The position numbers and the translations under genes are program-made. From positions 34,596,001-34,660,000 of the forward strand of contig OZ024747.1 of NCBI GenBank assembly GCA_964016885.1: a DNA stretch of 64,000 nucleotides, written 5' to 3'. Every line of letters begins with the position of its first letter. Positions within the stretch are counted from its first letter, which is position 1. Source of the DNA: Eledone cirrhosa. Taxonomy: Eukaryota. The notes under the pieces were generated by a model. That model had not been told where the DNA came from and searched no databases. It worked only from the letters and a program-made list of their open reading frames with translations. This document shows positions 6,641 to 61,935 of the stretch, piece after piece.

Positions 6641-6643
6641 TAA

Positions 6644-28719: not shown

Positions 28720-28721
28720 TA

Positions 28722-31031: not shown

Positions 31032-31424
31032 GGGCGGTGGATTGGCTGTATCGGTAGAGGGTCGGACGCCATGCTTTCCAGCTTACTTACGTCCCTTTAC
31101 GGTCTGAGTTCAAATTCTGTCGAGGTTAACTTTGCCTTTCATCCCTACGAGGTCGATAAAATAATGTAGCAGTAATACACTGGGTAATTGCTGGCCTTGT
31201 GCCAAATGTAGAAACAATTATTTCATTCTCATAATAAGGGCGGTGGATTGGCAGTATCAGTAGAGAGTCCTACGTTATGCTATGCAGTGTAGTGTTACAG
31301 CCCTTTACGGATTGAGTTCAAATCCCGTCGAGGTTAACTTTGCCTTTCACCCTTACAGGGTTGATAAAATAAAGTACTAGTAATGCACTGGGATAATTGC
31401 TGGCCTTGTTCCAAAAATAGAAAC
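31032..31424 (+). mobile_element. Two tandem SINE copies (31032-31215 and 31238-31424)
   Basis: Both run GGGCGGTGGATTGGC...GAGTTCAAAT...GCCTTTCA...TAGAAAC and both are followed by AATTATTTCATTCTCATAAT. Confidence 0.9.
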
Positions 31425-38118: not shown

Positions 38119-38176
38119 CCTTCTTCTTCTTCTTCTTCTTCTTCTTCTTCTTCTTCTTCTTCTTCTTCTTCTTCTT

Positions 38177-38213
<37 letters not shown>
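38119..38213. repeat. (TCT)n followed by (AAT)n microsatellite
   Basis: Directly visible; left boundary of the LINE array. Confidence 0.95.
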
Positions 38214-38215
<2 letters not shown>

Positions 38216-40166
38216 TTTTCTTTATTAACCACAAGGGTTTACATAAAGTAGACATTAAGGACAGTACAGGAAAATACAGGACGGTACAAATGGGCATTTC
38301 TGCGTGTAAAAAAAACAGAGGATGAAATAAAATAAAAAGAAAAATTCCCCAATAGGGTGGAGACTTCCGAGGGACATTTGTGGAGAAAGCCCATTAAAAG
38401 ACCACAGTGGCCCTGTCCACCAGGGCAAGTGCCCTCTCCCAGTTTTCCACCTTTAATTTACAGACACATACTCAGAGAAAGCCCATTCATTCGGGCCATA
38501 CTTGCTTCTCTCACCCATCTTTCAACAAAATGCTTGGAAGAGAGGACTTCCCTCTCTACCCTGATTTTCCTTTTCAGATGAAATTTGAAAAAGTTAATCA
38601 GGGCATCACCGAAGAGGTAAGTGCCCGTTTCAGCCCTTTCAAACGTGTCCACCATAATATCTCTTTCGCCATGGCCACCATACAGATAAAAACTGCCTGC
38701 CCTTCCCGGCTAAAGGGAGAGGGCGGCGCAATCCTCACGATGGACTCAGCTGATAGCTGGATCCGTCCTACACGTGACAGCAGGTGTTCGACATAAACCC
38801 ACAAGTCAGCAATGCTCGGGGACACTGGACGAGTGCGTGCAGGACGGTTTCGTCGCCCTGTGCGCATCTCGGACATGCCCGGCTGACGGCATCTCCATGC
38901 CTGTAAAGTTTATCCCGAACTGGCAAAGCACCCCGGTAGCACTGCCAGGCCAGGGATTTCTGGAAGTTGTCCATAGGCCCCGGCCCGAAAGTCCTTCCGA
39001 AGTGATTGGCTAGTTGATTTTCGTCGACTCCTAGATTTTCTCCAAGTACGTCGTCGCTCTTCCCCTCCACTAATCCCCTATAGAACGCCAAGGTGGAGTT
39101 TCCACCGATTACATTGCCCGATTGGTCGAGGGCTGTGTTTCAAAGAACACGTCCACGGTTCCATACTTCTGCCCACGTCTGATGTGGGTTTTTCTTGCCC
39201 ACACATGTCCCAAAGCTTTTTGGATTTGGGACTCGGATGCCCGTTCCACTCGGCGCGATTTTACATTTATTGTTCGATACGACACGGTGCATAGGCGCCG
39301 ATGCTCCATTTTATTAGGTGGGGGGGGGGGGGGGGGGGTGAGGCTGACCCTGTACCCATCTTTCTTTACCGTTTGTTTGGCATTTTCTAAATCCTCCTGA
39401 GTTACCGTAAATGCTTCGAACTGTTTTGCTACTCTGGGGTTTTTATAATGTCATTGTTGTTGTTGCTATCGTTATTTGTGTTAATATTAATTTTAGTTTC
39501 AGTTGTGGTGGTGGTGACGTCAGTCGTTTTGCTACTCTGGGGGGTTTTATAATGTCATTGTTGTTGTTGTTGCTATCGTTATTTGTGTTAATATTAATTT
39601 TAGTTTCAGTTGTGGTGGTGGTGACGTCAGTCGTCTTTGGTGGGGAAGAGTCCATTTTGCTTGATTTCATTTCGACATCACGAGTTAATTTATTTTTTTC
39701 TTCTTTTGTTTCTGTTGTCGCGGTGCTGGTGGGGGGGTGGTTGTCGCGGTGGTGGTGGTGGTGGAGGCTTTAACACCTGCAGTCATTGGTAATGGCGGTA
39801 AATGAATGTCTGCCTGAGACAAATTTAAAATATTGCTAGTGTTTATATTTTTTGTAGTGTTGGCAAACGTAGTAACATTTACAATGGTGGTGTCGGTGTG
39901 AGGTGTTAATTTGTGAGGAAGGATTTCAGCTGCTTGGTGCAGAGGTGAATTAGCCATTTTTTTCAAAGACATTTTTTTGATAATAATAAAAGTTTAAATT
40001 TTGGGCACAAGGCCCCAATCTTTTTGGGTGTCCTTTTCGGAAAACAATGTATGTGCGCTTATATATGGTTAACAATAAAAATGTTCCATAAATGGCAATT
40101 TTTAACAAACGGAAATAACAAACCTTTGCGGAGCTCACGATGATACGATTTACTACGAAGGTCGCC
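38214..40166 (-). mobile_element. Tx1/L1-like LINE, B-type 5' end, internally deleted (~4.1 kb lost)
   Basis: The 5' end GGCGACCT and ORF1 start match 49676 onward. At ~39136 ORF1 (TVDVFFET) is fused to late ORF2. The 3'UTR is intact and (AAT)n lies on both sides. Confidence 0.92.
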
Positions 40167-40198
<32 letters not shown>

Positions 40199-40200
<2 letters not shown>

Positions 40201-41298
40201 GGACACTAAAAAACATAGGCACTAAAAATAGACTGGAAATAAAGTACAAAACCAGGAGGAAAAAGCTAAATATTATCATAGAGGAACTGAAGCAACGCAT
40301 TGTAGCAAAGAGTGCAAAAATCAGGCGATACGAGAACAGAGTCAGTCAGTATAAACAGAACCGCATGTTCGACAACAACCAGAAGATGCTGTTTGGACAG
40401 CTTGAGGGGAAAGAAAGAGGCAACGATTTGATCCCTGAGGCGGAACAAACTAAAACATTCTGGAGAGGAATATGGGAGCAGGATGTTAGACATAATGACC
40501 AGGCAGGGTGGATTGAGACAGTACAGAGGGAGATCGGTGAGCAGGCACACCAACAAACTGATTTGAGTATCACAGTTGAAACTCTTAAGAGGCAGGCCAA
40601 AAAACTAACCAACTGGAAATCACCAGGCCCAGATGGTGTGCAGGGGTATTGGATTAAAAATTGAACATCCCTCCACCCGAAACTGACAACCATGTTCAAT
40701 GACTGCTTGATGTCAGGTGAGGTACCATAGTGGTTGACAAAAGGTACCACAGTTCTGATAATGAAAGACCGAATCAAGGGTAATGATGTTACCAACTATA
40801 GACCTATCACATGTCTGTTCGGAATGTGGAAACTGTTGACGAGCATTGTGTCTGAGGAAATCTACCATCACCTCCACACAAAGAACTTGTTGCCGGACGA
40901 ACAGAAAGGATGCCGAAAGTAGTCACGTGGTACAAAGGACCAGTTACTTATTGATAAGATGGTAATGGGGAATTGCAGGAGGAGACACACTGATCTTGCC
41001 ATGGGATGGATAGACTACAGAAAGGCATTTGACATGGTGCCTCATTCTTGGATCACCAAAAGCCTGGAGATCTTTAAGGTTGCAGACAACATCAGATGGG
41101 CAGGTGTATGAGGTCCTGGGAAACAGAGTTGCCATCAACTGGAGAACCCTTGTGAAGCGTGAAGATCAAGAGAGGTATCTTCCAGGGAGATAGCCTGTCC
41201 CCTCTGTTGTTTGTCCTTGCCCTGATGCCCCTGACCATTATGCTGCGAAAAGTGAGAGCAGGATACAAGTTGGGAAAGGGAGAGCTTACCATCAATCA
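40199..41298 (+). mobile_element. R4/Dong-like non-LTR retrotransposon fragment (N-terminal half of RT)
   Basis: [49 protein letters not shown] and GIFQGDSLSPLLF, with stops; it breaks just before the catalytic YxDD motif. Confidence 0.85.
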
Positions 41299-43751
41299 CC
41301 AGTCAGGCGAGGCTTAGGACAAGGTACGACGGTTAGGCGGTAGCAGATGACAGACGCGATGTACGCGTTAGCCACCTCCGCTCGACCTTTCAGGGATAGC
41401 TTCCTCTCCGCCCATTTATGGGTGAGAGAAGCCACCCTGCTCGTCACCTCGTCCCAGTTTTTGTCCGTCTGGAGGTCCGGACCGAACCAGACCCCTAGCA
41501 ATTTAACCGGTCCGTCCGTCCAGCGCCCGACGACGCTGTTGGACGGCATGGACCTGCCTCTCCAGGTGCCGAGCTGCAGGCCCACTGACTTTTCCTGGTT
41601 GATCATTGCTCCTGTCACCGCTTCGTATTCTCTTAGTGTAGTGCCGATCGCCTCGATGTGTTTGGCGTTCGACACCACTACGGTGACATCGTCCGCATAT
41701 GCTGATACGGATCTTCCGCATCCTAGTTCGCGCGGGACTCCCCTCCACGTCTCCAGTTTGTGCAGTAATGGCTCGAGAGTCAATACGTACAAGAGGGACG
41801 AGAGGGGACATCCTTGGCGGACCGAGCGCATGATGTTGAACGGTTCCGACAGGTGACCGTTCACTCTCACTACAGAGCAGATGTCGCTGTGCATGGCAGC
41901 GATCCAGCCTCTGAAGACGGGCCCAAAGCCAGCCGCCCTCAGGACTGCCGCTAGGTAACGATGGTCGACCCTATCGAAAGCTTTCGACTGATCTAAATTG
42001 ATCAAGGACCCACCCGTGCCAGGTTCCCTAGCTACCCTCTCTACGATGTATCGCATGAGGTGGAGGTTGTCGTGGATGGATCTGTCGGGAATGGCGCATG
42101 TCTGCGCCTCTCCCACCAGACCATCAACGACAAGCGCCAACCTCTTTGCTAGCACCTTGGCCAAAATCTTACACTCTGTGTTTAGCAGAGTTATGGGCCG
42201 GAAATTGTCTATGTTATCCCCCTTGTTCGGATCCTTTCTCAGCAGTTCCACCGCTCCTCGGCTCACAGAACTGGGAATTCTCCCGTTCTGTTGCCAGTTG
42301 CAGTAGACGTCCGCCAAGAGGCCTCCGAACAAGTCTGGCATCTGTACGTAAAGTTCATAGGGCAGACCATCCAAACCAGGCGATTTACCCCTTGTGCAGC
42401 CAGTCATTGCCTCCCGTACTTCAGCGGCTGTTATCGGCTTTTCGCAGCACTTCGCCTCAGTGGCCGAGAGCCGCGGCAGTCCGTCGAGGTAGACACTAAA
42501 GTCCATCCCTCTACCCGGCCCCCCGCTGCCCCCGAACAGCTGAGCGAAGTGTCGCTGAAAAGCTTCACACATTTGCCCGGGATCGAGTAGCATGCGCCCG
42601 TCGTGGTCCACCAAAGACCGGATCGTGGCTTTGTTGCCACGACGCGCCTCCGCCACTCGGGCCCATTGAACGGCTTTCGTCCCCTCGTGTCTGAGAGCAC
42701 GCACCCTAGCTCTGACAACGCAGCCTTCGTGCTTTGCATTGAAGAATTGGTCAAGGGCCAATTTCGCCGCAAGCACGTCGGTCGCAATGCCTTTGCTAAG
42801 CGCCTCGTCTAATTTTCTAACTAGTTCTCCCTCTGCTCTATTTTTCTCTATTGCTAAAGCCTTACTAAACCTAATCGATTCTATTCTAATCGCTCTTTTC
42901 AGAGCAAACCACCACTTGTTGTTGACGATGGCCCCCGTCAACGCCCGCTTAACTAGTTCGCTAATCCGGTCTCTGTAGGCCTTGCGCGCTGGTAAGGACG
43001 CGTTTAGCTTCCAGTAGCCGGGTCCTCGTCTATGAAGCCTATCTAAGTCAAGCACACAGGTCACGAATTTGTGGTCCGTGTAGCTGACTATCTTGAATTG
43101 TGGACAGCCTATGCTAGACCTATCTATTTCCCTACAAAATACTCTATCTAGATATGATCTGGATGACCCTATGCGGTTTGTCCAAGTCCACATTGGCACA
43201 TTCGGGAAATCCAATCGGTACCTGTCAGACAGTTCAAAACGCCTGAGCAGGTTGGTGAGGCTCTTGCACCCTCCACCCCTATCCGCTAATCCCACACAGT
43301 CCCAGCGTGCATCTAAGATCCCGTTCCAGTCGCCCACTAACACTAAAGAGCGGGACGTTCCAAGAAAGGTCTCCAGACGCCGGAAGAAATCAGGCCGCCC
43401 TGCTCCTGTCGGGGCATAGACGGCCACTAGCCTGAAAGCTTGCCCGTCTCCGCTGGTCACGTCCAGCACCACCAGCTTACCCTCTGGGTCCAGGAAGATG
43501 GCCCGTATGGCGAGATCCAAACCTCTCCGAAAAAGCACAGCAACTCCTCCACCCGATCCAGGACGGCTGGGAGATGCGTACACATCGTAGCCGCCGAAGA
43601 TCGGTGCGAAGGCCCGTGCTTCGGAGATTCTGGTCTCGCTGATGGCCACTACATCTATGTTTAGTGACCTGAGGTCGTTGAGCAGGTGACCCTGATTCCA
43701 TGACGACCCCAAGCCACGCGCATTTATGCTGCCTATTCTGAGTGAGGTCAT
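41292..43751 (-). CDS. ORF2 APE endonuclease + reverse transcriptase, C-terminally truncated
   Basis: SINARGL, ISET, GDWN, SYLDR and TDH (APE); KSPGLDG, FRPITLLN, DQSKAFDRV, VRQGCPLS and AYADD (RT). Confidence 0.92.
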   Translation of the reverse strand: MTSLRIGSINARGLGSSWNQGHLLNDLRSLNIDVVAISETRISEARAFAPIFGGYDVYASPSRPGSGGGVAVLFRRGLDLAIRAIFLDPEGKLVVLDVTSGDGQAFRLVAVYAPTGAGRPDFFRRLETFLGTSRSLVLVGDWNGILDARWDCVGLADRGGGCKSLTNLLRRFELSDRYRLDFPNVPMWTWTNRIGSSRSYLDRVFCREIDRSSIGCPQFKIVSYTDHKFVTCVLDLDRLHRRGPGYWKLNASLPARKAYRDRISELVKRALTGAIVNNKWWFALKRAIRIESIRFSKALAIEKNRAEGELVRKLDEALSKGIATDVLAAKLALDQFFNAKHEGCVVRARVRALRHEGTKAVQWARVAEARRGNKATIRSLVDHDGRMLLDPGQMCEAFQRHFAQLFGGSGGPGRGMDFSVYLDGLPRLSATEAKCCEKPITAAEVREAMTGCTRGKSPGLDGLPYELYVQMPDLFGGLLADVYCNWQQNGRIPSSVSRGAVELLRKDPNKGDNIDNFRPITLLNTECKILAKVLAKRLALVVDGLVGEAQTCAIPDRSIHDNLHLMRYIVERVAREPGTGGSLINLDQSKAFDRVDHRYLAAVLRAAGFGPVFRGWIAAMHSDICSVVRVNGHLSEPFNIMRSVRQGCPLSSLLYVLTLEPLLHKLETWRGVPRELGCGRSVSAYADDVTVVVSNAKHIEAIGTTLREYEAVTGAMINQEKSVGLQLGTWRGRSMPSNSVVGRWTDGPVKLLGVWFGPDLQTDKNWDEVTSRVASLTHKWAERKLSLKGRAEVANAYIASVICYRLTVVPCPKPRLTGD

Positions 43752-46097
43752 GTTTAAAATAGAGTGGAAAAGATGGGAAAGACCACTTACCGTACTTTTG
43801 GTAGAGGAGGGATGGTTTTTACATCCCTTTTCACTTGATCGTCTGGTGAAGGGACCGTTGAATCGTCCCTTCGGCTGGTCGTCGGCTCTTCTAAGAGAAT
43901 GTCTGAGTATACTCTTCGATTGATGGTTCCTCCTAGGTCCCTGAAATCACCAACTGCGTTGGGGAATTTCGTTTTAATGTTTGTGTATTGTTTCTGTGCT
44001 ATTTTTAGCAGTCTTATGTTAGTTGGCGTTTTGATTGGTGCTGGTATTATGTAGTCCTGTTGTGAAATGTCTGTGTGTTGAATTATGTAAGTCATTAGTT
44101 TCTTGTTGTGTGTGTTTATTGCCGTGCATTTGTTTTTCTGGGGGTGGGGTGTGGTTCTGCTATTTTCTTGTCGTTGTTGCTGGGTGTGTGTGTTTTGTTG
44201 TTGTGTTTGCGATGTTGGTGCTTGTGGTGGTGGTGTTGAAGGTGTTGTTGGCGGTGGGGTTGTCGCCGGTGGTGATGGTGGTGCTGGTGTGGGTGGTGAT
44301 GGTGTTGGTGGTGTTGCTGCTGTGGGTCTCTTTGCAGTAGACTTTACCCTTTTCTCATTTCTTTCCTCCCTTTTCAAAGGCGACGATGCGCTGCTTCTGC
44401 GTTTGTGCCTTCTTGCGACCTTTTGCCATCCCTCTCCCACCTCACACTCCATGTCTGATTCTGTAAGGTCGGGGAGGGGTACCAGCTCCACTCTTTCACT
44501 TGTTGTTGTTGGTGATGTTTGCACTGGAGTCTCTGTTGCAGCTGCATTTGGTATTGCTGTTGTTGTTGTTAATATTTCCACTGCTGCTGCTGTCTTTGAT
44601 TTCCGTGGAGTGGGTATGGGTGCCACGGACCTATCGTTCCTGGTTGCCGCTTGTCCTGTTGCTGGTAGCCGTGGAGCCGGATTCGGAAGGAGGGGGGTTT
44701 TCTCCTTTCTCAGGGTCTTCTCGTTGCAGAAGGCCCTGAGGTGAGTCTTCGATCCACAGCGAAAGCATTTCGGGCGTTTTCCCTCAACACTTATGGGCAG
44801 TTGAGTGCCGTTATCGAAGTCTATCACATCCGGGATAGCTTCGATGCACTCCTGGTTGGTTTGGATTAGCATCTCAATGGAGGAGCCGACCCAATCTTCT
44901 CTTACTTTTTTCTGTACTTGCAGTACAGTTGTTTTGTCCTCGATTCCGACGAGGACAGACGCGGCCAGCCAAGAAGGGGTCATTCCGGGGGGGGACGTGG
45001 GTCAGTTTGACCCTCACAATGTTCTGCCCGCAGTAGGAGGGCACCAACACCATTTCCTCGCTCCTTAGGGTCACTACTGATTGGGCCTTTGCCTCCTGGG
45101 GTGTGGCAAAAAGTACGTCTACGGTGGCGTATTTTTTGCCTCGGGTGATGTGCGTTTTCCTCTGCCACACAGACCCCAAGGCTTTTTGTATTTGGGCCTC
45201 TGTGGCTCTTTCCACCCTACGGGATTTTGTACTTACTGTACGGTACGTGACCGTACAGTGCTCTTGGGTTTCGAAAAAATTTTTCGCTGCCTTGCAGATT
45301 GCTCGGTGTCCGTTCTTTGTCACCATCTTCTTCGCTTCCTCTAATTCCTCATTTGTTATGAGGATTGTTTCCAAGTTTTTCGCAATACCTGCAAATGAGA
45401 TTGGTTTTTCTCTGCTGTTGTTGTTGTCGTCAGAGCTGCTGGTACTTTTGTTGTTGCTGCAGGTACTACGACTACTGCCTCCGCCGCTGTTGCTGTGGTT
45501 GTTGTTGGTGTTGCTGCTGCTAATGCTGTTGTTGTTTATGCTGCTGGTGATGCTGTTGCGGCTGCTACTGTTGTTTTCATTGTCACTGTTGCTGTTGTTA
45601 TTACGGCTGCTACTGCTATTATTCCTGACGTCAGACGAATGAACTGGGTTTTCGTATTTCCCGCACACCTGTTTCGTCGCTGTCGTCGTCGTCGTGGAGA
45701 AACCTTGCACGCTTTGCACGAGACTTTTCTTTTCTTTCGTCGCTTGCGAAAGAGAAGGGAGGGAGAGAGACACATTTAAAGAAGGGAGGGAGAGAGACAA
45801 TCTTCTCTCTGCTGTAGTGATGATTGAGGAAGAAGAAGACGGAATGAGTGGGAGTGACGTATGAAATTTCTTTTTCGTAGCCATGTTTTTTTGTTTAAAA
45901 TGAAATTTTGGGTACAAAACCCCAATAACCGGTTATTTAACCCCGAAGGGCCAAATAACGGACAGAAAGACCCCTCTCACGAGGAGGAGGGTGTCTTTAT
46001 CAACAATTTGGTTCAAGTTTTAAACAATTTACAATTGTTTTAACGGTTAAAAATTACTATACCTTACAGAGCCGAGCCTCCGTCAACCATGGCATTC
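41299..46097 (-). mobile_element. Tx1/L1-like LINE, A-type 5' end, 3'-truncated
   Basis: 5' GAATGC next to (TTA)n; ORF1 45884-43787 with one frameshift at ~44990; ORF2 open from 43751 to the break. Confidence 0.95.
43787..45884 (-). pseudogene. A-type ORF1 (gag-like, CCHC knuckle), frameshifted
   Basis: Starts MATKKKF; contains CFRCGSKTHLRAFC (CX2CX4HX4C); an extra C in a homopolymer at ~44990 shifts the frame relative to the 55860 copy. Confidence 0.85.
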
Positions 46098-46126
<29 letters not shown>

Positions 46127-46128
<2 letters not shown>

Positions 46129-47488
46129 TTTTCTTTATTAACCACAAGGGTTTACATTAAGTAGACATTAAGGACAGTACAGGACAATACAGGACGGTAC
46201 AAATGGGCATTTCTGCGTGTAAAAAAAACAGAGGATGAAATAAAATAACAAAGAAAAATTCCCAATAGGGGGGAGACTTCCGAGAGACATTTGTGGAGAA
46301 AGCCCATTAAAAGACCACAGTGGCCCTGACCACCAGGGCAAGTGCCCTCTACCAGTTTTCCACCTTTAATTTACAGACACATACTCAGAGAAGGCCCATT
46401 CAGTCGGGCCATACTTGCTTCTCTCACCCATCTTTCAACAAAATGCTGGGAAGAGAGCACTTCCCTCTCTACCCTGATTTTCCTTTTCAGATGAAATTTG
46501 AAAAAGTTAATCAGGGCATCACCGAAGAGGTAAGTGCTCGTCTTCAGCCCTTTCAAACGTGTCCACCATACTATCTCTTTAGCCATGGCCACCAGACAGA
46601 TAAAAACTGCCTGCCCTTCCCGGCTAAAGGAAGAGGGCGGCGCAATCCTCACGATGGACTCAGCTGATAACTGGATCCGTCCTACGCGTGACAGCAGGTG
46701 TTCGACCTAAACCCACAAGTCAGCAATTTTCGGACACTGGACGAGTGCGTGCAGGACGGTTTCGTCGCCCTGTGCGCATCTCGGACATGCCCGGCTGACG
46801 GCACCTCCATGCCTGTAAAGTTTATCCCGAACTGGCAAAGCACCCCGGTAGCACTGCCAGGCCAGAGATTTCTGGAAGTTGTCCATAGGCCCCGGCCCAA
46901 AAGTCCTTCCAAGAGATTGGCTAGTTGATTTTCGTCGACGCCTAGAGTTTCTCCAAGTACGTCGTCCCTCTTCCCCTCCACTAATCCCCTATAGAACGCC
47001 AAGGTGGAGTTTCCACCGATCACATTGCCCGATTGGTCGAGGGCTGTGAGCGCCTGAAGACATTCCAGTCTCCAAGCGCTCACTCTCGGTCTTCGCTGAC
47101 CCAGGACTGCAGCTCCGTCAAGGAGACGAGCTGGGGAAAAACGTGTCTAGCAAACGCCGACCACACCTGACCACCGTCGAGGAAGAGGTGGAGATGTCGT
47201 AGCCTGAGCGCGTGTCTGCGCATCATCAGCCAGGGCATGCCCAGCCCTCCACGTAGCGGGTGTTGACAGCAGATGGACCGCCTGACCATCGGAGCGCGTC
47301 CCTTCCACAAGAAGCGAAAGAGCAAACGCTCCAGCGCAGTCAGGCGGGGCTTAGGACAAGGTATGACGGTCAGGCGATAGTAGATGATGGACGCGATGTA
47401 CGCGTTAGCCACCTCCGCTCGACCTTTCAGGGATAGCTTCCTTTCGGCCCATTTCTGGGTGAGAGAAGCCACCCTGCTCGTCACCTCG
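46127..47488 (-). mobile_element. Tx1/L1-like LINE 3' fragment, head-to-tail with 41299-46097
   Basis: Runs from EVTSRVASLTQKWAER through the 3'UTR; (AAT)n at 46098-46126 links the two copies. Confidence 0.93.
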
Positions 47489-48672
47489 GAATTGAATGCA
47501 AGGAATAGGATCGATGCCATAAACACGCTTGCCATACCAGTAGTAACCTACAGTTACAATGTCATCAACTGGTCAAGCACAGAGATCCGTAGGCTCGATA
47601 CAAAAATTCGAAAATTCTTAACCATGCACAGAATGCATCATCCTAAGGCAGATATAGATAGAATATATCTCACTAGGAAAGAAGGAGGACGTGGGTTAGT
47701 CCAGTTAGACATTGCGTTGAAAACTGCAACAATTGGATTATCTACATATCTAAGGAAATCACATGATGGATGATCAAACTCGTTTTGAAACACGAAAGCA
47801 TCAACAGATCATATTCCATTACAAAAGATGCACAAAGATACAGTAATGGACTACAAACTTCAGAAGTACCATTTACTGCTGAAATGGAAAACACAGAAAA
47901 AGCAAAGCAGGTAAAAGTAACTGCAAAGAAAGACCTGCTACAGAAACTGGCTAAGAAATGGCAAGAAAAGCCTCTGTATGGAAAATACCTAGAACGAGCT
48001 AACAATCCTGATGTTGACAAAACTTTAACCCATCAGTGGTTGGCATCCTCTGGAGTGAAATCGGATACTGAAGGACTGATTATATCAGCACAAGATCAGT
48101 GTCTGCCAACAAACAATTACCAAGCCAACATAATAAATAATGGATGCAACCCATTATGCCGTGTGTGCAAAAAACAACCAGAGACCATTGACCATATAAT
48201 TTCAATGTGCAGTCCTATAGCTCCAACCGAATACCAAAACAGGCATGACAGAGCTGCACAATACATACATTGGATAATAGACAAGAATGTATGTATAAAA
48301 ACATTTAAAAAATTGAGCAAGTATAAGGACCTGGAGATAGAAATTGGAAAAATGTGGAAATTGAGAACTAAAACAATACCTGTGGTTGTGGGCGCTCTGG
48401 GAATGATACCTAAGGGGGGTCTAATGATTACTTTTCGCAAATCCCAGGAAACCCGCGTATAGGAGAAATACAAAATATAGTACTAATGGGAACTGCCCAT
48501 ATATTGAGGAAGATTCTGTCAATATAAGTACATCACAAGTCTAAACACTAAAGATGAATGTGTGAGTATGTATGTTCTTTCTTGAACATGGCGGACCTTG
48601 TTGTCTCTTGAGATCACTCGTTGTGACTTGGTGATAACTCGTATGAACATAAAGCAAGATAAATACAACTGT
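47489..48672 (+). mobile_element. R4/Dong-like retrotransposon 3' fragment (CCHC finger, deleted restriction-like endonuclease)
   Basis: AINTLAIPV, RKEGGRGL, AQDQCL, CRVCKKQPETIDHIISMC, RHD, KYKDL and PVVVGALG; the PD..D segment is missing; (AAT)n tail. Confidence 0.87.
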
Positions 48673-48703
48673 AATAATAATAATAATAATAACAATAATA
48701 ATG

Positions 48704-48887
48704 GTTTCTACTTTAGGCACAAGGCCAGCAATTATCCAGTGCATTACTGGTACTTTATTTTATCGACCCCATAAGGATGAAAGGCAAAGTCAACCTCGGC
48801 GGGATTTGAACTCAGATCGTAAAGGGACGTAACTATGCTGGAAAGCATGGCGTCCGACCCTCTACCGATACTGCCAATCCACCGCCC
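48704..48887 (-). mobile_element. Young SINE copy in (AAT)n
   Basis: Full-length and near-identical to 49431-49614 in inverted orientation. Confidence 0.92.
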
Positions 48888-48940
48888 TAATAATAACAAT
48901 AATAATATTAAGAAGAATTATAATTATTATTATTATTATT

Positions 48941-49281
48941 CTTTGAATCTCAGTCATTGATGTTAGTTAACTGGAAGGTTTGTTGAAACGAATATCAAGC
49001 CACTACCTGCAGCCTCAGATATTCAGGACGTATCAGGGCCTCTTGCTGTTCCCAGCAAGCATGCCATTTGAAGCGTTCCAAAAATCGTGGCGGGGCCAAT
49101 TTTCTTTAATCATCCCTGGAAACTTTTTGAGATAGTCCCTAGTGCGCCTATGGCAATCGGGATCACTTTGACTTCATGGCAGTTCCAAATCCTTTTTACC
49201 TCCCACTTTAAGTCCTGGTATCGGTTAATTTTCTCCCTCTCCTTCTCTTGTACTCTCGTGTCGAATGGGCAGGCCACATCC
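48941..49281 (-). mobile_element. Short 3' fragment of a second R4/Dong-like element
   Basis: Minus strand DVACPFDTRVQEKEREKINRYQDLKWEVKRIW...VIPIAIGALG; ATT repeats on both sides. Confidence 0.85.
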
Positions 49282-49297
49282 ATTATTATTATTATTA

Positions 49298-49334
<37 letters not shown>

Positions 49335-49336
49335 TA

Positions 49337-49410
49337 TTTTATTACATCCTCTGTTTTTTACACGCAGAAATGCCCATTATGTAAACCCTTTTGGTTAATA
49401 AAGAAATCAT
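49337..49410 (+). mobile_element. Mini fragment of the Tx1-like 3'UTR
   Basis: TTACATCCTCTGTTTTTTACACGCAGAAATGCCCATT joined to ATGTAAACCCTTTTGGTTAATAAAGAAA, followed by (TTA)n. Confidence 0.8.
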
Positions 49411-49430
49411 TATTATTATTATTATTATGA

Positions 49431-49614
49431 GGGTGGTGGATTGGCAGTATCGGTAGAGGGTTTGACGCCATGCTTTCCAGCATAGTTACGTCCCTTTACG
49501 ATCTGAGTTCAAATCCCGCCGAGGTTGACTTTGCCTTTCAACCTTACGGGGTCGATAAAATAAAGTACCAGTAATGCACTGGATAATTGCTGGCCTTGTG
49601 CCTAAAGTAGAAAC
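49431..49614 (+). mobile_element. Young SINE copy in (TTA)n
   Basis: tRNA-like head (TGGCAGTATCGG A box, GAGTTCAAAT B box), GCCTTTCA..GGGGTCGATAAA core and (TTA)n tail. Confidence 0.92.
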
Positions 49615-49615
49615 A

Positions 49616-49666
<51 letters not shown>

Positions 49667-49675
49667 ATTATTATT

Positions 49676-52600: not shown

Positions 52601-55600
52601 GGACCCGGCTACTGGAAGCTAAACGCGTCCTTACCAGCGCGCAACGCCTACAGAGACCGGATTAGCGAACTAGTTAAGCGGGCGTTGACGGGGGCCATCG
52701 TCAACAACAAGTGGTGGTTTGCTCTGAAAAGAGCAATTAGAATAGAGTCCATTAGGTTTAGTAAGACTTTAGCAATAGAGAAAAATAGAGCAGAGGGAGA
52801 ATTTGTTAGAAAATTAGATGAGGCGCTTAGCAAAGGCATCGCGACCGACGTACTTGCGTCGAAATTGGCCCTTGACCAATTCTTCAATGCAAAGCACGAA
52901 GGCTGCGTTGTCAGAGCTAGGGTGCGTGCTCTCAGACACGAGGGGACGAAGCCGTTCAATGGGCCCGAGTGGCGGAGGCGCGTCGTGGCAACAAACCCAC
53001 GATCCGGTCTTTGGTGGACCACGACGGGCGCATGCTACTCGATCCCGGGCAAATGTGTGAAGCTTTTCAGCGACACTTCGCTCATATGTTCGGGGGCAGT
53101 GGCGGGCCGGATCGAGGGATGGACTTTAGTGTCTACCTCGACGGACTGCCGCGGCTTTCGGCCACCGAGGCGGAGTGTTGCGAAAAGCCGATAACAACCG
53201 CTGAAGTACGGGATGCAATGACTAGTTGCACAAGGGGTAAATCGCCTGGTTCGGATGGTCTGCCCTTGAACTTTACGTACAAATGCCAAACTTGTTCGGA
53301 GGCCTTTTGGCGGACGTCTACTGCAACTGGCAACAGAACGGGAGAATTCCCAGCTCTGTGAGCCGAGGAGCGGTGACGCTGCTGAGAAAGGATCCGAACA
53401 AGGGGGATAACATAGATAATTTTAGGCCCATAACTCTGCTAAACACAGAGTTCAAGATTTTGGCCAAGGTGCTAGCAAAGAGGTTGGCGCTTGGCGTTGG
53501 TGGTCTGGTGGGAGAGGCACAGACATGCGCCATTCCCGACAGATCCATCCACGACAACCTCCACCTCATGCGATACATTGTAGAGAGGGTAGCTAGGGAA
53601 CCTGGCACGGGTGGGTCTTTGATCAATTCATATCAGTCGAAAGCCTTCGATAGGGTCGACCATCGTTACCTAGCGGAAGTCCTGAGGGCGGCTGGCTTTG
53701 GGCCCATCTTCAGAGGCTGGATCGCTGCCATGCACAGCGACATCTGCTCTGTAGTGAGAGTGAACGGTCACCTTTCGGAACCGTTCAACATCATGCGCTC
53801 GGGCCGCCAAGGATGTCCCCTCTCGTCCCTATTGTATGTATTGACTCTCTAGCCATTACTGCACAAACTGGAGACGTTTAGGGGGGTCCCGCGCGAACTA
53901 GGATGCGGAAGATCCGTGTCAGCATATGCCGACGATGTCACCGTAGTGGTGTCGAACGCCAAACACATCGAGGCGATCGGCACTACACTAAGAGAATACG
54001 AAGCGGTGACAGGAGCAATGATCAACCAGGAAAAGTCAGTGGGCCTGCAGCTCGGCACTACACTAAGAGAATACGAAGCGGTGACAGGAGCAATGATCAA
54101 CCAGGAAAAGTCAGTGGGCCTGCAGCTCGGCACCTGGAGAGGCAGGTCCATGCCGTCCAACAGCGTCGTCGGGCGCTGGACGGACGGACGGGTTAAATTG
54201 CTAGGGGTCTGGTTCGGTCCAGACCTCCAGACGGACAAAAACTGGGACGAGGTGACGAGCAGGGTGGCTTCTCTCACCCAGAAATGGGCCGAGAGGAAGC
54301 TATCCCTGAAAGGTCGAGCGGAGGTGGCGAATGCGTACATCGCATCCGTCATCTACTACCGCCTGACCGTCGTACCTTGTCCGAAGCCCCGCCTGACTGC
54401 GCTGGAGCGTTTGCTCTTTCGCTTCTTGTGGAAGGGACGCGCTCCGATGGTCAGGCGGTCCATCTGCTGTCAACACCCGCTACGTGGAGGGCTGGGCATG
54501 CCGTGGCTGATGATGCGCAGACACACGCTCAGGCTACGACATCTCCACCTCTTCCTCGACGGTGATCAGGTGTGGTCGCCGTTTGCTAGACACATTTTTC
54601 CCCAGCTCGTCTCCTTGACGGAGCTGCAGTCCTGGGTCAAGCGAAGTCCGAGAAGGAGCGCTTGGAGACTGGAATGTCTTCAGGCGCTCACAGCCCTCGA
54701 CCAATCGGGCAATGTGATCGGTGGAAACTCCACCTTGGCGTTCTATAGGGGATTAGTGGAGGGGAAGTGCGACGACGTACTTGGAGAAACTCTAGGCGTC
54801 GACGAAAATCAACTAGCCAATCTCTTCGGAAGGACTTTCGGGCCGGAGCCTATGGACAACTTCCAGAAATACCTGGCCTGGCAGTGCTACCGAGGAGCTT
54901 TGCCAGTTCGGGATAAACTCTACAGGCATGGAGGTGCCGTCAGCCGGGTATGTCCGAGATGCGCGCAGGGCGACGAAACCGTCCTGCACGCACTCGTCCA
55001 GTGTCCGAGCATTGCTGACTTGTGGGTTTATGTCGAACACCTGCTGTCACGTGTAGGACGGATCCAGCTATCAGCTGAGTCCATCGTGAGAACTGCCCCG
55101 CCCCCATCCTTTAGCCGGGAAGGGCAGGCAGTTTTTATATGTCTGGTGGCCATGGCGAAAGAGATAGTATGGTGGACACGTTTGAAAGGGCTGAAGACGA
55201 GCACTTACCTCTTCGGTGATGCCCTGATTAACTTTTTCAAATTTCATTTAAAAGGAAAATCAGGGTAGAGAGGGAAGTGCTCTCTTCCCAGCATTTTGTT
55301 GAAAGATGGGTGAGAGAAGCAAGTATGGCCCGAATGAATAGGCCTTCTCTGAGTATGTGTCTGTAAATTAAAGGCGGAAAACTGGGAGAGGGCACTTGCC
55401 CTGGTGGTCAGGGCCACTGTGGTCTTTTAATGGGCTTTCTCCACAAATGTCCCTCGGAAGTCTCCCCCCTATTGGGGAATTTTTCTTTGTTATTTTATTT
55501 CAACCTCCGTTTTTTTACACGCAGAAATGCCCATTTGTACCGTCCTGTATTGTCCTGTACTGTCCTTAATGTCTACTTTATGTAAACCCTTGTGGTTAAT

Positions 55601-55608
55601 AAAGAAAA

Positions 55609-55610
<2 letters not shown>
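49676..55610 (+). mobile_element. Full-length Tx1/L1-like LINE, B-type 5' end, inactivated
   Basis: ORF1 49884-51840 (stops and frameshifts), ORF2 51875-55366 (frameshifts, stop at 53850, 75-bp duplication), 3'UTR with AATAAA and a (TTA)n tail. Confidence 0.95.
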
Positions 55611-55642
<32 letters not shown>

Positions 55643-58600
55643 GAATGCTATGGTTGACGGAGGCTCGGCTCTGTAAGGTATTGTAAATTTTGAACGCTAT
55701 AACAATTGTAAATTGTTTAAAACTTTAACCAACTTGTAGACAAAAACACCCTCCTCATCGTGAGAGTGGTCTTTCTGCCCGTTATTTGGCTCTTTGGGTT
55801 TAAATAACTGCTTATTGGGGTTTTGTGCCCAATATTTATTTTAAACAAAAAAAAACAACATGGCTACGAAAAATAATTTTCATAGGTCACTCCCACTCAT
55901 TCCGTTTTCTTCTTCCTCAATCGTCACTACAGCAGAGAGAAGATTGTCTCTCTCCCTCCCTTCTTTAAATGTGTCACTCTCCCTCCCTTCTCTTTCGCAA
56001 GCGACGACAGAAAAGAAAAGTCTCGTGCAAAGCGTGCAAGATTTCTCCACGACGACGACGATAACGACGAAACAGGTGTGCGAGAAATACGAAAACCCAT
56101 TTCATTCGTCTGACGTCAGGAATAATAGCAGTAGCAGCCGTAATAACAACAGCAACAGTGACAATGAAAACAACAGTAGCAGCCGCAACAGCATCAGCAG
56201 CAGCATAAACAACAACAGCATTAGCAGCAGCAACAACAACAACAACCACAGCAACAGCGGCGGCGGCAGTAGTCGTAGTACCTGCTGCAACAACAAAAGT
56301 AACAGCAGCTCTGACGACAACAACAACAACAGCAGCAAAGAAAAACCAAATTCGTTTGCAGGTATCGCGAAGAACCTGGAAACAATCCTCATAACAAATG
56401 ACGAATTAGAGGAAGCGAAGAAGATGGTGACAAAAACTGGACACCGGGCAATCTGCAAGGCAGCGGAAAAGTTTTTCGAAACCCAACAGCACTGTACGGT
56501 CACGTATCGTACAGTAAGTACAAAATCCCGTAGGGTTGAAAGAGCCATAGAGGCTCAAATACAAAAAGCCTTGGGGTCTGTGTGGCAGCGAAAAACGCAT
56601 ATCACCCGAGGCAAGAAATATGCCACCGTAGGCATACTTTTTGCCACACCCCAGGAGGCAAAGGCTCAATCCGTAGTGACCCTAAGGAGCGAGGAAATGG
56701 TGTTGATGCCCTCCTACTGCGGGCAAAAAATCGTGTGGGTCACACTGACCCACGTCCCCCCCGGGATGGCCCCTTCTTGGCTGGCCACGTCTGTCCTCGT
56801 CGGAATCGAGGACAAAACAACTGTACTGCAAGTACAGAAAAAAGTAAGAGAAGATTGGGTCGGCACCTCCATTGAGATGTTAATCCAAACCAACAAGGAG
56901 TGCATCGAAGCTATCCCGGATGTGATAGACTTCGATAACGGCGCTCAACTGCCCATAAGTGTTGAGGGCAAACGCCCGAAATGCTTTCGCTGTGGATCGA
57001 AGACTCACCTCAGGGCCTTCTGCAACGTGAAGACCCTGAGAAAGGAGAAAACCCCCCTCCTTCCGAAACCGGCTCCACGGCTACCAGCAACAGGACAAGC
57101 GGCAACCAGGAACGATAGGTCCGTGGCACCAATACCCACGCCAGGGAAATCAAAAACAACAGCAGCAGTGGAAGTATTAACAACAACAACAGCAATACCA
57201 AATGCAGCTGCAACAGAGACTCCAGTGCAAACATCACCAACAACAATAAGTGAAAGAGTGGAGCTGGTACCCCTCCCCGACTTCACAGAATCAGACATTG
57301 AGTGTGAGGTGGGAGAGGGATGGCAAACTGTCGTAAGAAGGCACAAACGCAGAAGCAGCGCATAATCGCCTTTGAAAAGGGAGGAAAGAAATGAAAAAAG
57401 GGTAAAGTCTACTGCAAAGAGACTCACAGCAGCAACACCACCAACACCATCACCACCTACACTAGCACCACTATCACCACCGGCGACAACCCCACCGCCA
57501 ACAACACCTTCAACACCACCACCACAAGCACCAACATCGCAAACACAACAACAAAACACACACACACAGCAACAACGACAAGAAAATAGCAGAACCACAC
57601 CCCGCCCCCAGAAAAACAAATGCACGGCAATAAATACACACAACATGAAACTAATGACTTACATAATTGAACACACAGACATTTCACAACACGACTACAT
57701 AATACCAGCACCAATCAAAACGCCAACGAACATAAGACTGTTAAAAATAGCACAGAAACAATACACAAACATTAATAAGAAATTCCCCAACTCAGTTGGT
57801 GATTTCAGAGACCTAGGAGGAACTATCAACCGAAGAGTATATTCGGACATACTCATAGAAGAGCCGACGACCAGCCGAAGGGACGATTCAACGGTCCCTT
57901 CACCAGCCGATTAAGTCAAAAGGGTTGGAAAAACCATCCCTCCTCTACGAAAAGTACGGTAAGTGGTCTTTCCCATCGTTTCCACTCTATTTTAAACATG
58001 ACCTCACTCAGAATAGGCAGCATAAATGCGCGTGGCTTGGGGTCGTCATAGAAGCAGGGTCACCTGCTCAACGACCTCAGGTCACTAAACATAGCTGTAG
58101 TGGCCATCAGCGAGACCAGAATCTCCGAAGCACGGGCCTTCGCACCGATCTTCGGCGGCTACGATGTGTACGCATCTCCCAGCCGTCCTGGATCGGGGGG
58201 TGGAGTAGCTGTGCTTTTTCGGAGAGATTCGGATCTCGCCATACGGGCCATTTCCTGGACCCAGAGGGTAAGTTGGTGGTGCTGGACGTGACCAGCGGAG
58301 ACGGGCAAGCTTTCAGGCTAGGGACCGTCTATGCCCCGACAGGAGCAGGGCGGCCTGATTTCTTCCGGCATCTGGAGACCTCTCTTGGAACGTCCCGCTC
58401 TTTTGTGTTAGTGGGCGACTGGAACGGGATCTTAGATGCACGCTGGGATTGTGTGGGATTAGCGGATAGGGAAGGAGGGTGCAAGAGCCTCACCAACCTG
58501 CTCAGGCGTTTTGAACTGTCTGACAGATACCGATTGGATTTCCCGAATGTGCCATTGTGGACTTGGACAAATCGCATTGGGTCATCCAGATCATATCTAG

Positions 58601-61600
58601 ATAGAGTATTTTGTAGGGAAATAGATAGGTCTGGCATAGGCTGTCCACAATTCAAGATAGTCAGCTACACGGACCACAAATTCGTGATCTGTGTGCTTGA
58701 CTTAGATAGGCTTCATAGACGAGGACCCGGCTACTGGAAGCTAAACGCGTCCTTACCAGCGCGCAACGCCTACAGAGACGGGATTAGCGAACTAGTTAAG
58801 CGGGCGTTGACGGGGGCCATCGTCAACAACAAGTGGTGGTTTGCTCTGAAAAGAGCATTAGAATAGAATCGATTAGGTTTAGTAAGGCTTTAGCAATAGA
58901 GAAAAATAGAGCAGAGGGAGAACTAGTTAGAAAATTAGACGAGGCGCTTAGCAAAGGCATTGCAAAGAACGTGCTTGCGGCGAAATTGGCCCTGTGTTGT
59001 CAGAGCACGGGTGCGTGCTCTCAGACACGAGGGGACGAAAGCAGTTCAATGGGCCCGAGTGGCGGACGCGCGTCATGGCAACAAAGCCACGATCCGGTCT
59101 TTGGTGGACCACGACGGGCGCATGCTACTCGATCCCGGGAAAATGTGTGAAGCTTTTCAGCGACACTTCGCTCAGTTGATCGGGGGCAGCGGTGGGCCGG
59201 GTCGAGGGATGGACTTTAGTGTCTATCTCGACGGACTGCCGCGGCTCTCGGCCACTGAGGCGAAGTGTTGCGAAAAACCGATAACAGCCGCTGAAGTAAG
59301 GGAGGCAATGACTGGCTGCACAAGGGGTAAATCGCCTGGTTTGGATGGTCTGCCCTATGGACTTTACGTACAGATGCCAGACTTGTTCGGAGGCCTCTTG
59401 GCGGACGTCTACTGCAACTGGCAACAGAACGGGAGAATTCCCAGTTCTGTGAGCCGAGGAGCGGTGGCACTGCTGAGAAAGGATCCGAACAAGGGGGATA
59501 ACATAGATAATTTCCGGCCCATAACTCTGCTAAACTCAGAGTTCAAGATTTTGGCCAAGGTGCTAGCAAAGAGGTTGGCGCTTGGCGTTGGTGGTCTGGT
59601 GGGAGAGGCGCAGACATGCACCATTCCCGACAGATCCATCCACGGCGACCTCCACCTCATGCGATACATCGTAGAGAGGGTAGCTAGGGAACCTGGCACG
59701 GGTGGGTCCTTGATCGATTTAGATCAGTCGAAAGCTTTCGATAGGGTCGACCATCGTTACCTAGCGGCAGTCCTGAGGGCGGCTGGCTTTGGGCCCGTCT
59801 TCAGCGGCTGGATCGCTGCCATGCACAGCGACATCTGCTCTGTGGTGAGAGTGAACGGTTATCTGTCGGAACCGTTCAACATCATGCGCTCGGTCCGCCA
59901 AGGATGTCCCCTCTCGTCCCTCTTGCACGTATTGACTCTTGAGCGACTACTGCACAAACTGGAGACGTTGAGGGGCGTCCCGCGCGAACTAGGATGCGGA
60001 AGATCCGTGTCAGCATATGCGGACGATGTCACCGTAGTGGTGTCGAACGCCAAACACATTGAGGCGAACGGCACTACACTAAGAGAATACGAAGCGGTGA
60101 CAGGAGCGATGATCAACCAGGAAAAGGCAGTGGGCCTACAGCTCGGCACCTGGAGAGGCAGGTCCATGCCGTCCAACAGCGTCATCGGACGCTGGACGGA
60201 CGGACGGGTTAAATTGCTAGGAGTCTGGTTCGGTCCGGACCTCCAGACGGACAAAAACTGGGACGAGGTGACGAGCAGGGTGGCCTATCTCACCCAGAAA
60301 TGGGCCGAGAGGAAGCTATCCCTGAAAGGTCGAGCGGAGGTGGCTGACGCGTACATCGCGTCTGTCATCTGCTACCGCCTTACCGTTGTACCTTGTCCTA
60401 AGCCTCGCCTGACTGCGCTGGAGCGTTTGCTCTTTCGCTTTTTGTGGAAGGGACGCGCTCCGATGGTCAGGCGGTCCATCTGTTGTCAACACCCGCTACG
60501 TAGAGGGCTTGGCATGCCGTGGCTGATGATGCGCAGGAACGCGCTCAGGCTACAACATCTCCACCTCTTCCTCGACGGTGATCAGGTGTGGTCGCCGTTT
60601 GCTAGACACGTATTTCCCCAGCTCGTTTCATTGACGGAGCTGCAGTCCTGGGTCAAGCGAAGACCGAGATGGAGCGCCTGGAGACTGGAATGTCTTCAGG
60701 CGCTCACAGCCCTCGACCAATCGGGCAATGTGATCGGTGGAAACTCCACCTTGGCGTTCTATAGAGGATTAGTGGAGGGGAAGAGCGACGACGTACTTGG
60801 GGAAAATCTAGGCGTCGACGAAAATCAACTAGCCAATCTCTTCGGAAGAACTTTCGGGCCAGGGCCTATGGACAACTTCCAGAAATCTCTGGCCTGGCAG
60901 TGCTACCGAGGAGCCTTGCCAGTTCGGGATAAACTCTACAGGCATGGAGGTGCCGTCAGCCGGGCATGTCCGAGATGCGCGCAGGGCGACGAAACCGTCC
61001 TGCACTCACTCGTCCAGTGTCCGAAAATTGCTGACTTGTGGGTTTATGTCAAACATCTGCTCTCGCGTGTAGGACGGATCCGGCTATCCTCTGAGTCCAT
61101 CGTGAGGATTACCCCGCCCTCCTCCTATAGCCGGGAAGGGCAGGCACTTTTTATCTGTTTGGTGGCTATAGCGAAAGAGATAGTATGGTGGACACGTTTG
61201 AAAGGGCTGAAGACGAGCACTTACCTCTTCGGTGATGCTCTGATTAACTTTTTCAACTTTCATCTGAAAAGGAAAATCAGGGTAGAGAGGGAAGTCCTCT
61301 CATCCCAGCTTTTTGTTGAAAGATGGGTGAGAGAAGCAAGAATGGCCCGAGTGAATGGGCCTACTCTGAGTATATATCTGTAAATTAAAGGTGGAAAACT
61401 GGGAGAGGGCACTTGCCTTGGTGGTCAGGGTCACTGTGTCCTTTTACTGGGCTTTCTCCACAAATTTCCCTCGGAAGTCTCCCCCCTATTGGGGAATTTT
61501 TCTTTGTTATTTTATTACATCCTCTGTTTTTTTACACGCAAAAATGCCCATTTGTACCGTCCTGTATTGTCCTGTACTGTCCTTAATGTCTACTTTATGT

Positions 61601-61627
61601 AAACCCTTGTGGTTAATAAAGAAAACA
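55643..61627 (+). mobile_element. Full-length Tx1/L1-like LINE, A-type 5' end, inactivated
   Basis: ORF1 from 55860 (stops at 57365 and 57914); ORF2 57998-61383 with frameshifts at ~58250 and ~58858 and a short deletion at ~58993; C-terminal CPRC..ETVLH...C finger; (TTA)n tail. Confidence 0.95.
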
Positions 61628-61935
61628 TTATTATTAGTGTTATTATTATTATTATAATTATTACTTTATTATTCTGTTTGTTATATTTGTTATCACCGTT
61701 GTGTTTACGTTCTTAGCATTTGATTTAGATTAGCAGTTAAGAGATAATAGAGAATTGTGTAAACACCTTGAAAGTCAGCCAAAACCACGATATGGTGTAT
61801 CTCGTACTTTGAAGCTAGGTTATTTCACGGAAACTACTTACGATCCAAATTAACATCAAATTTTTCTATTACACCTAAAGCAAATGTTCAAGATTTAAAC
61901 ATACCCCACCCCTCCACAAACACACACACACACAT

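Follow-up and report, generated by a model that had tools for sequence, protein, structure and literature searches.

We analyzed a 64,000-nt stretch of the Eledone cirrhosa genome (contig OZ024747.1 of assembly GCA_964016885.1, positions 34,596,001 to 34,660,000; hereafter the window, numbered from its first base), and found that positions 38178-61654 probably hold eleven independent young retroelement insertions nested in a single AAT/ATT microsatellite. The insertions come from Tx1-like long interspersed nuclear elements (LINEs), which encode an apurinic/apyrimidinic endonuclease (APE), from Dong/R4-like elements, which encode a restriction-like endonuclease (RLE), and from a short interspersed nuclear element (SINE). 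Each of the two endonucleases likely nicks its own strand of the repeat, and reverse transcription would be primed at the nick. By sequence reading, a repeat scan and self-BLAST, the cluster resolves into 11 pieces: six Tx1-like LINEs, three Dong/R4-like fragments and two SINEs. From left to right, these are the copies that we term L1 (minus strand), Dong1 (plus), TxA' (minus), L2 (minus), Dong2 (plus) and SINE-L (minus), then a 16-bp spacer, then Dong3 (minus), mini-Tx1, SINE-R, TxB and TxA (all plus; Table 1).

A junction table for the 11 pieces shows that 18 of 22 element ends adjoin (AAT)n/(ATT)n, with repeat present at nine of 11 5' ends and at all nine natural 3' ends. The repeat makes up 359 bp, or 1.5%, of the cluster, and the location of nine of 11 5' ends within it gives a binomial p of ~2e-15, a value qualified by the post hoc choice of the window and by insertions that are not independent as trials. 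Junction phase is constant: a whole ATT unit precedes the 5' ends of all four full-length Tx1-like copies, and ATT follows all five Tx1-like 3' ends. The remaining four ends form two repeat-free junctions between elements, Dong1/TxA' (41299/41300), where both 3' ends are broken, and L2/Dong2 (47488/47489), where both partners are 5'-truncated. The likely cause of these two junctions, and of the internal gap in copy L1, is deletion at a later time or truncated 5' ends that came to abut. The segment that the two junctions bound, 41300-47488 (L2 plus TxA'), is close to a single element in length, has an overlap of 152 bp and resembles a permuted unit; the overlapping sequences differ at 10 of 152 sites, and hence belong to two different copies.

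All 18 repeat-adjoining ends follow a family rule, in which the Tx1-like elements and SINEs read ATT in their own sense and the Dong-like pieces read AAT. Left of 48907 the plus strand reads (AAT)n, with three Tx1-like pieces and one SINE on the minus strand and two Dong-like pieces on the plus strand. Right of 48922 the plus strand reads (ATT)n, with three Tx1-like pieces and one SINE on the plus strand and one Dong-like piece on the minus strand. None of the 11 copies is an exception (chance 2^-8 = 0.004, with the family directions left free). An earlier note on this DNA, made from the sequence alone, had claimed a strict orientation rule with a reversal of polarity; the rule held for 11 of 11 copies, and we place the flip within the 16-bp spacer at 48907-48922. 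Its statement that every intact end adjoins AAT/TTA repeats is right for 18 of the 22 ends, and covers the others only if the two repeat-free junctions are counted as not intact.

Three features of the junctions bear on whether the repeat was the target of these elements or their tail. At the head-to-head Dong/Tx1-like junctions (40167-40199 and 49282-49330), the 33 and 49 bp of repeat are the tail of neither element. The 19-nt target-site duplication (TSD) of SINE-L carries the repeat's own G interruption, which explains the presence of repeat on both sides without any added tail. At the 3' end of TxA, three perfect units are followed by an interrupted, decaying ATT run that represents older host repeat. 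Together, these data indicate that the repeat is at least partly a pre-existing target that was duplicated as TSD. The earlier note had also proposed that each new tail regenerates the target, and this did not survive: SINE-L has a TSD and no added tail, TxA has only three perfect units, and the TSD is at least partly responsible. The data do support its proposal that an APE-type and an RLE-type family share one microsatellite in opposite orientations.

We propose that the cluster was built by target-primed reverse transcription from both strands of the repeat. The Tx1-like APE would nick the AAT strand at a TpA step, as the L1 endonuclease (EN) does (PMC13295347, in the portion covered), and the 3' end thus released would base-pair with a short ATT end of the Tx1-like RNA. 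Cleavage by the Dong RLE would fall on the opposite strand, and orientation would then follow from the strand nicked. Each insertion would split the repeat and duplicate ~10-20 nt of it as TSD, such that targets persist beside the copies and the 6-kb element bodies are avoided. The preference of the Tx1-like elements may be for a short motif that microsatellites offer densely.

The larger family is a Tx1-like, L1-group, APE-type LINE. Open reading frame (ORF) 2 encodes an N-terminal APE, a reverse transcriptase (RT) and a C-terminal CCHC motif (Pfam Exo_endo_phos, RVT_1 and zf-RVT). An EN domain lies at 43002-43751 (minus strand). The APE retains its catalytic motifs intact (N, E, Y, GDWN, D and DH, matched in an alignment to L1 EN), and the ORF2 profile matches L1 ORF2p at 1e-105 versus R2 at 1e-37. 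ORF1, upstream of ORF2, encodes 506 amino acids with a CX2CX4HX4C zinc knuckle; it has no Pfam match, and its core has no database homolog. The closest named homolog of the LINE is from Argonauta hians (58%), which points to a probable octopod host. In an RT tree that held no named Tx1 reference, a coral protein labelled TX1-like (P0014, 32%) falls in a neighbouring, poorly resolved group, and we use "Tx1-like" as a description rather than as proven membership of the Tx1 clade. ATT flanks five of seven Tx1-like 5' ends in the window (four of four full-length, one of three 5'-truncated); Kojima's criterion for a target-specific Tx1 family is that the target flanks >20% of genomic copies, and five of seven here describes one window only.

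The family comprises two types, A and B, that are 93-96% identical across ORF2 and the 3' untranslated region (UTR), show no DNA similarity across the first ~2.1-2.3 kb, and have ORF1 cores that are 50% identical in amino acids. Sequencing run X1 gives deep coverage of the A-type 5' region but not of the B-type 5' end, consistent with a swap of 5' modules. The two 5' UTR/ORF1 modules lie at 49676-51790 and 55643-57910, and the arrangement points to module swapping. All pieces of the cluster are deeply covered repeats in sequencing run X4. Read coverage was taken over 39900-49281 from four of nine listed runs; X2 and X3 matched with a small share only and were left out of any inference on habitat.

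All three Dong-like pieces align in order to single-ORF RT-CCHC-RLE relatives of ~1140 amino acids, whose best solved match is R2. Dong2 contains the CCHC motif, and both Dong2 and Dong3 contain the RLE C-terminus. The R4/Dong label is a putative one, drawn from architecture and target. The earlier note had treated the pieces as one group; they are Dong-like, but fall into at least two families, Dong1 with Dong3 and Dong2 apart. Identity to the relatives is 55-72% for Dong1 and Dong3 and 29-46% for Dong2, and run X1 covers Dong2 deeply and neither Dong1 nor Dong3. These unequal identities and coverage also led us to reject the idea that the Tx1-like segment had split a single element into Dong1 and Dong2. 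Twin priming was rejected for Dong1/Dong3 on account of unsuitable geometry.

In the window, three of three Dong-like pieces lie in sense-oriented (TAA)n, and this preference recurs in other animal DNA. Two bacterial metagenome-assembled genome (MAG) records, G001 and G002, carry animal DNA; we used 34 of 36 fetched stretches and dropped two that looked bacterial. In these stretches, a sense, 5'-truncated Dong piece follows 16 of 31 runs of at least five AAT units (two of the 31 lie in one tandem segmental repeat) and a Dong 3' end precedes 12 of 31, with no antisense cases, versus 14 sense and 14 antisense at 300 random control points. Among 43 Dong 3' ends, 19 are followed by at least three TAA units and none by TTA. 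The premise that Dong elements target TAA repeats is thereby replicated for the sense-AAT orientation (16 of 31 sense, 0 antisense). G001 is a Rhodospirillales MAG in which three contigs (C16, C52 and C61) together include several hundred kb of animal sequence, rich in Dong stacks in (AAT)n; C16 joins animal DNA to sequence of bacterial G+C content (0.58-0.64 below ~260 kb, ~0.37 above).

The SINEs behave differently from what the earlier note had assumed in describing them as microsatellite-targeted. The pair in the cluster is 96-97% identical and lies in mirrored order. An nhmmer search identified nine copies outside the cluster, and in none of the nine are there at least three ATT units within 30 nt of 5' flank. 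ATTAT follows five of seven outside 3' ends and forms the beginning of TSDs of 11, 15 and 20 nt, none of them repetitive. These outside copies are older (10-23% apart), and their TSDs show that the targets were not microsatellites. We infer that the SINE prefers the short ATTAT motif, and not the microsatellite as such. From a 3' end that resembles that of the Tx1-like elements and from its TSDs starting at ATTAT, the SINE is likely carried by the Tx1-like lineage: compared with Tx1-like ends, its 3' 23-mer beats all but 43 (young Tx1-like ends) and 3 (old ends) of 20,000 random 23-mers. Motifs resembling A and B boxes in the SINE head were read by eye, and neither ARAGORN nor Rfam reports a tRNA there. 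The SINE was not found in G001 or G002, a blank that is uninformative.

Several other SINE-related sequences lie in the window. The B-type 5' UTR at 49827-49862 (and 39980-40015, minus strand) contains a stretch that resembles the SINE 3' end and runs into three TTA units; it may be a 3' end that was captured, or a motif common to both. At 31032-31431 are two tandem SINEs, the second inside the 3' flank of the first with a 19-20-nt TSD. A second SINE type with a tRNA-Ser-like head (ARAGORN 7406-7479 and 7692-7765) is found at 7268-7874 and 28722-28960, with two copies inverted; the SINE at 28553-28720 adjoins the third copy of this type.

The copies in the cluster are independent and young: each has diverged ~1-2.5% from its source, which a rough calibration from the covered part of PMC13282606 converts to a few million years. 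Over the 3' 920 bp, distances are 3.05% for L1/L2, 3.7% for L1/TxB and 3.5% for L2/TxB, and only two sites group L2 with TxB, a star-like pattern. TxA has 59 private ORF2 changes versus 24 for TxA' (p=1.5e-4). Both the star-like distances and the unequal private changes indicate independence. Low-depth contigs of sequencing run X2 show 16 differences from TxA' in six listed pieces totalling 2576 bases. We considered an inverted segmental duplication, in which the SINE, TxB and TxA parts are mirrored and the orientation rule partly counts the same events twice. Positions 41300-47488 do align to 60415-54248 at 94.9% identity across the B-to-A junction, and the SINE pair matches in mirrored order. 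However, L2 is no nearer to TxB than to copy L1, private changes are unequal, SINE-L has its own TSD, and the Dong pieces differ between the arms. Based on the distances, private changes and SINE-L TSD we rejected this explanation, which we consider extremely improbable.

In the G001 and G002 stretches, we identified a sister lineage of the window's Tx1-like LINE (44% identity, tree support 100/99). It forms head-to-tail arrays of 6.4-6.9-kb units with a conserved ORF2, divergent 5' modules and no spacer repeat, and its short EN hairpin loops differ from those of the window's elements. A search of Rfam found no RNA gene between array units. G002 (MAG record CAXXMW, bacterial) includes animal contigs of up to ~90 kb that are rich in these arrays, with ORF2 open in many, a contamination of the record. 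Several 5' UTR/ORF1 types sit on near-identical ORF2 in these arrays, and self-targeting is possible. More distant Tx1 relatives at 58 JGI metagenome loci and 3 MAG loci have no ATT/AAT runs of at least five units, and at 22-45% identity (long matches) are too distant to inform; no relatives were found in viral contigs or in plasmids.

A number of observations weigh against the idea that Tx1-like elements target the (ATT)n microsatellite, beginning with the fact that the case comes from one locus. ATT/AAT repeats follow none of 48 sister-lineage 3' ends (overlapping loci, not all distinct), and ATT targeting is therefore not a property of the whole lineage. Among 5'-truncated Tx1-like copies, ATT flanks the 5' end of mini-Tx1 alone, where there is microhomology, and is missing at the 5' ends of L2 and of the copy at 20269-21249. 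The 5' repeats of TxA and TxA' double as the 3' flank of the upstream Tx1-like element, which self-nesting could explain. A CCTTGTG-type motif of the SINE and Tx1-like ends recurs in the TxB 5' UTR (49827-49849), and the SINE-LINE pairing depends on ~23 nt. Finally, among the listed contigs none bridges the locus-specific junctions.

Self-nesting with tail chasing would account for some of these observations. In such a scheme, a Tx1-like element inserts beside its own ends or those of the SINE, or has (ATT)n at both transcript ends, and Dong homes into the ATT tails from the other strand. The spacer-free arrays of the sister lineage fit, as does the order of copies, with TxA and TxA' coming after another Tx1-like element and TxB after a SINE; so does the old copy at 20269-21249, with its ATT 3' flank and no 5' repeat. 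Yet the 5'-truncated mini-Tx1 is preceded by 49 bp of ATT repeat, SINE-L gained no tail, and the 3' flank of TxA is a decayed run rather than a fresh tail. On balance, we judge self-nesting to be unlikely.

We give still less credence to passive accumulation or assembly artefact, in which random insertions survive, or the assembler joins sequences, at microsatellites only; this we regard as very unlikely. Octopus genomes are repeat-rich with transposable element (TE) hotspots (PMC13282606, in the text covered), and the missing contig bridges would fit an artefact. Against it are the constant junction phase, the strict bias in strand, the diagnostic interruption carried by a TSD, distances of 3-6% between copies, and the replication of the Dong pattern in other animal DNA. 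Loose ends in read mapping at 42748 and 49230 coincide with AATT sites of a restriction-site-associated DNA (RAD) library and were discounted as probable ligation chimeras.

For nested insertion into one microsatellite, the flip of polarity has two candidate origins that we hold to be about equally probable, a compound (AAT)n/(ATT)n seed or a later inversion of 38178-48917. Under inversion, which is compatible with the other readings and which we would credit no more readily than doubt, a pile of one polarity grew on a (CTT)n(ATT)n seed, and 10.7 kb then inverted between breaks in two microsatellites. The two AAG units of the spacer are the reverse complement of the (CTT)19 flank, and when 38178-48917 is turned back in silico, both junctions come into 3-nt phase (chance 1 in 3). 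Per 141 AAT runs in 717 kb, CTT-then-AAT is seen once, AAT-then-AAG three times and AAT-then-ATT at two loci (4 strand hits), and the present arrangement would require all three in one place. Each of these compounds does occur naturally in the 717-kb census, however, the spacer is also readable as a degenerate AAT run, and breakpoint homology is at most 1 nt. A periodicity score of 80 for the re-inverted versus 78 for the observed sequence was left unused as an unfair comparison, since the observed optimum slides off the junctions.

The Dong half of this arrangement is already known biology. In the covered portions of two papers, insects, molluscs and cnidarians all have Dong elements that target (TAA)n (PMC7998251, PMC3812793), and R4/Dong-clade elements of Bombyx, Anopheles, Biomphalaria and Darwinula resemble ours in their RT-CCHC-RLE order and sense (TAA)n insertion (PMC7998251, PMC3812793). 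The window differs in having fragments only, from at least two families, with the N-terminal Myb-like domain lost by truncation. In Octopus vulgaris, Dong-R4 families have been recently active (PMC13282606, Table 1, as covered); that paper describes active Dong-R4 and L1-Tx1 families plus TE hotspots, and the word "target" does not appear in the part of its text covered (PMC13282606).

The targets named for Tx1 elements in the covered parts of PMC4494074 and PMC10088271 are Tx1D, U2, U5, 5S, satellites, transposons, (TC)n, (TTC)n, (TTCC)n, (TTTC)n and telomeric repeats. Kibi in (TC)n, Koshi in (TTC)n, the crocodilian (TTCC)n/(TTTC)n families and the telomeric Tx1-1_ACar share with our family two ORFs, an APE-RT-CCHC ORF2 and insertion in simple repeats (same parts of PMC4494074 and PMC10088271). 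Compared with these families, ours differs in inserting in (ATT)n and in sharing that target with an RLE family on the opposite strand. We found no Tx1 family with an ATT/TAA target in the portion of the literature searched; Kojima's figure and supplements may list further repeat units. The crocodilian SINEU/Tx1-Mar pair, as described in the part of PMC4494074 covered, offers a likeness for the SINE: a SINE there shares the Tx1 target preference, more weakly in some SINE families, and its tandem insertions sandwich a TSD. Here, by comparison, the SINE has a putative RNA polymerase III (Pol III)-type head and a 3' end resembling that of the Tx1-like LINE, and the target is a microsatellite or short motif rather than a DNA transposon.

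Shared repetitive targets have precedents, which makes the finding moderately surprising. The insect elements SART and TRAS lie in opposite orientation, and R1 (APE-type) and R2 (RLE-type) pair in 28S ribosomal DNA; both pairs resemble our case as two families on one repetitive target. SART and TRAS insert in telomeric repeats (PMC10088271, in the part covered). Both of these are APE-type and telomeric, and the sites of R1 and R2 within their gene are separate, whereas here an APE-type and an RLE-type family occupy the same 3-nt repeat on opposite strands. What is new, at one locus, is an (ATT)n-inserting Tx1-like family on the strand opposite to Dong, a likely partner SINE and a self-arraying sister lineage.

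If the pattern is true genome-wide, APE-type Tx1 elements gain (ATT)n as a further target. Two sister lineages that differ both in target (microsatellite versus self) and in EN hairpin loops would allow a direct test of how APE specificity evolves, an abundant octopod SINE would have its candidate partner LINE in this family, and some octopus TE hotspots would have a concrete mechanism. More tentatively, and with clear doubt, an octopod Tx1 lineage may have switched from self-insertion to (ATT)n and come to carry a SINE that ranks among the most abundant in the genome. Together with Dong, it would make AAT microsatellites self-renewing two-strand landing pads that build hotspots and rearrange at repeats, with one ORF2 kept and 5' UTR/ORF1 modules swapped.

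Table 1. Elements, repeats and flanks of the cluster, with one older Tx1-like fragment from elsewhere in the window.
Feature	Positions	Strand
(CTT)19, left host flank	38120..38176	
(TAA)12, 3' flank of L1; ATT in L1 sense	38178..38214	
L1, B-type Tx1-like; 5' and 3' ends intact; ~4.1-kb internal deletion at 39135-39137 with 3-nt microhomology	38215..40166	-
(AAT)11 between head-to-head 5' ends of L1 and Dong1; tail of neither	40167..40199	
Dong1, 5'-truncated R4/Dong-like RT fragment, broken mid-RT	40200..41299	+
TxA', A-type Tx1-like; 5' end intact; has ORF1, and ORF2 with its APE-RT stretch open; lacks 1.2 kb at the 3' end; youngest of the A copies	41300..46097	-
(AAT)10 between L2 3' end and TxA' 5' end	46098..46127	
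L2, 3' 1.36 kb of B-type Tx1-like copy; 5' end meets Dong2 without repeat	46128..47488	-
Dong2, 3' part of second Dong-like family (RT end, CCHC, RLE, 3' UTR); 5'-truncated; ~195-bp internal deletion near 48277	47489..48671	+
(TAA)n with one CAA unit; 3' flank of Dong2 and 3' TSD copy of SINE-L	48672..48702	
SINE-L, putative Pol III-type SINE; 19-nt TSD (ATTATTATTGTTATTATTA in SINE sense)	48703..48887	-
5' TSD copy of SINE-L (48888-48906), then 16-bp spacer with two AAG units (48907-48922); candidate inversion breakpoint 48916-48917	48888..48922	
(ATT)6, 3' flank of Dong3; AAT in Dong3 sense	48923..48940	
Dong3, 341-bp 3' end (RLE C-terminus, 3' UTR); lineage that of Dong1	48941..49281	-
(ATT)16 with one GTT unit between head-to-head 5' ends of Dong3 and mini-Tx1	49282..49330	
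mini-Tx1, 78-bp 5'-truncated 3' end; 43-bp internal deletion	49331..49408	+
(ATT)6 spacer	49409..49429	
SINE-R, 97% identical to SINE-L	49430..49615	+
(ATT)n, ~60 bp	49616..49675	
TxB, full-length B-type Tx1-like LINE, 5934 bp; ORFs broken; 75-bp internal tandem duplication 53977-54133	49676..55609	+
(ATT)11 between TxB 3' end and TxA 5' end	55610..55642	
TxA, full-length A-type Tx1-like LINE, 5984 bp; ORF1 55845-57365 with CX2CX4HX4C knuckle; ORF2 from 57998, frameshifted	55643..61626	+
Right host flank: (ATT)n that is perfect for three units and interrupted and decaying beyond them	61627..61654	
Old 3' fragment of a Tx1-like copy outside the cluster (27% divergence); flank of ATT type at the 3' end, no repeat at the 5' end	20269..21249	+

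Elsewhere in the window, long ORFs at 2-2046 (minus strand) and 25388-26664 (plus strand) contain RT-like DD motifs, followed in the second by a GIY-YIG-like stretch; they have no Pfam match, and by eye we take them to be Penelope-like elements. Inverted repeats of 347 bp with 98.8% identity (2283-2629 and 6643-6989) surround 4 kb of AT-rich repeats and likely mark a young element with terminal inverted repeats. Tandem arrays lie at 10869-11709 (48 bp, ~13-15 copies), 30587-30860 (91 bp, 3 copies) and 62938-63957 (~508 bp, 2 copies), the last of which may extend past the window.

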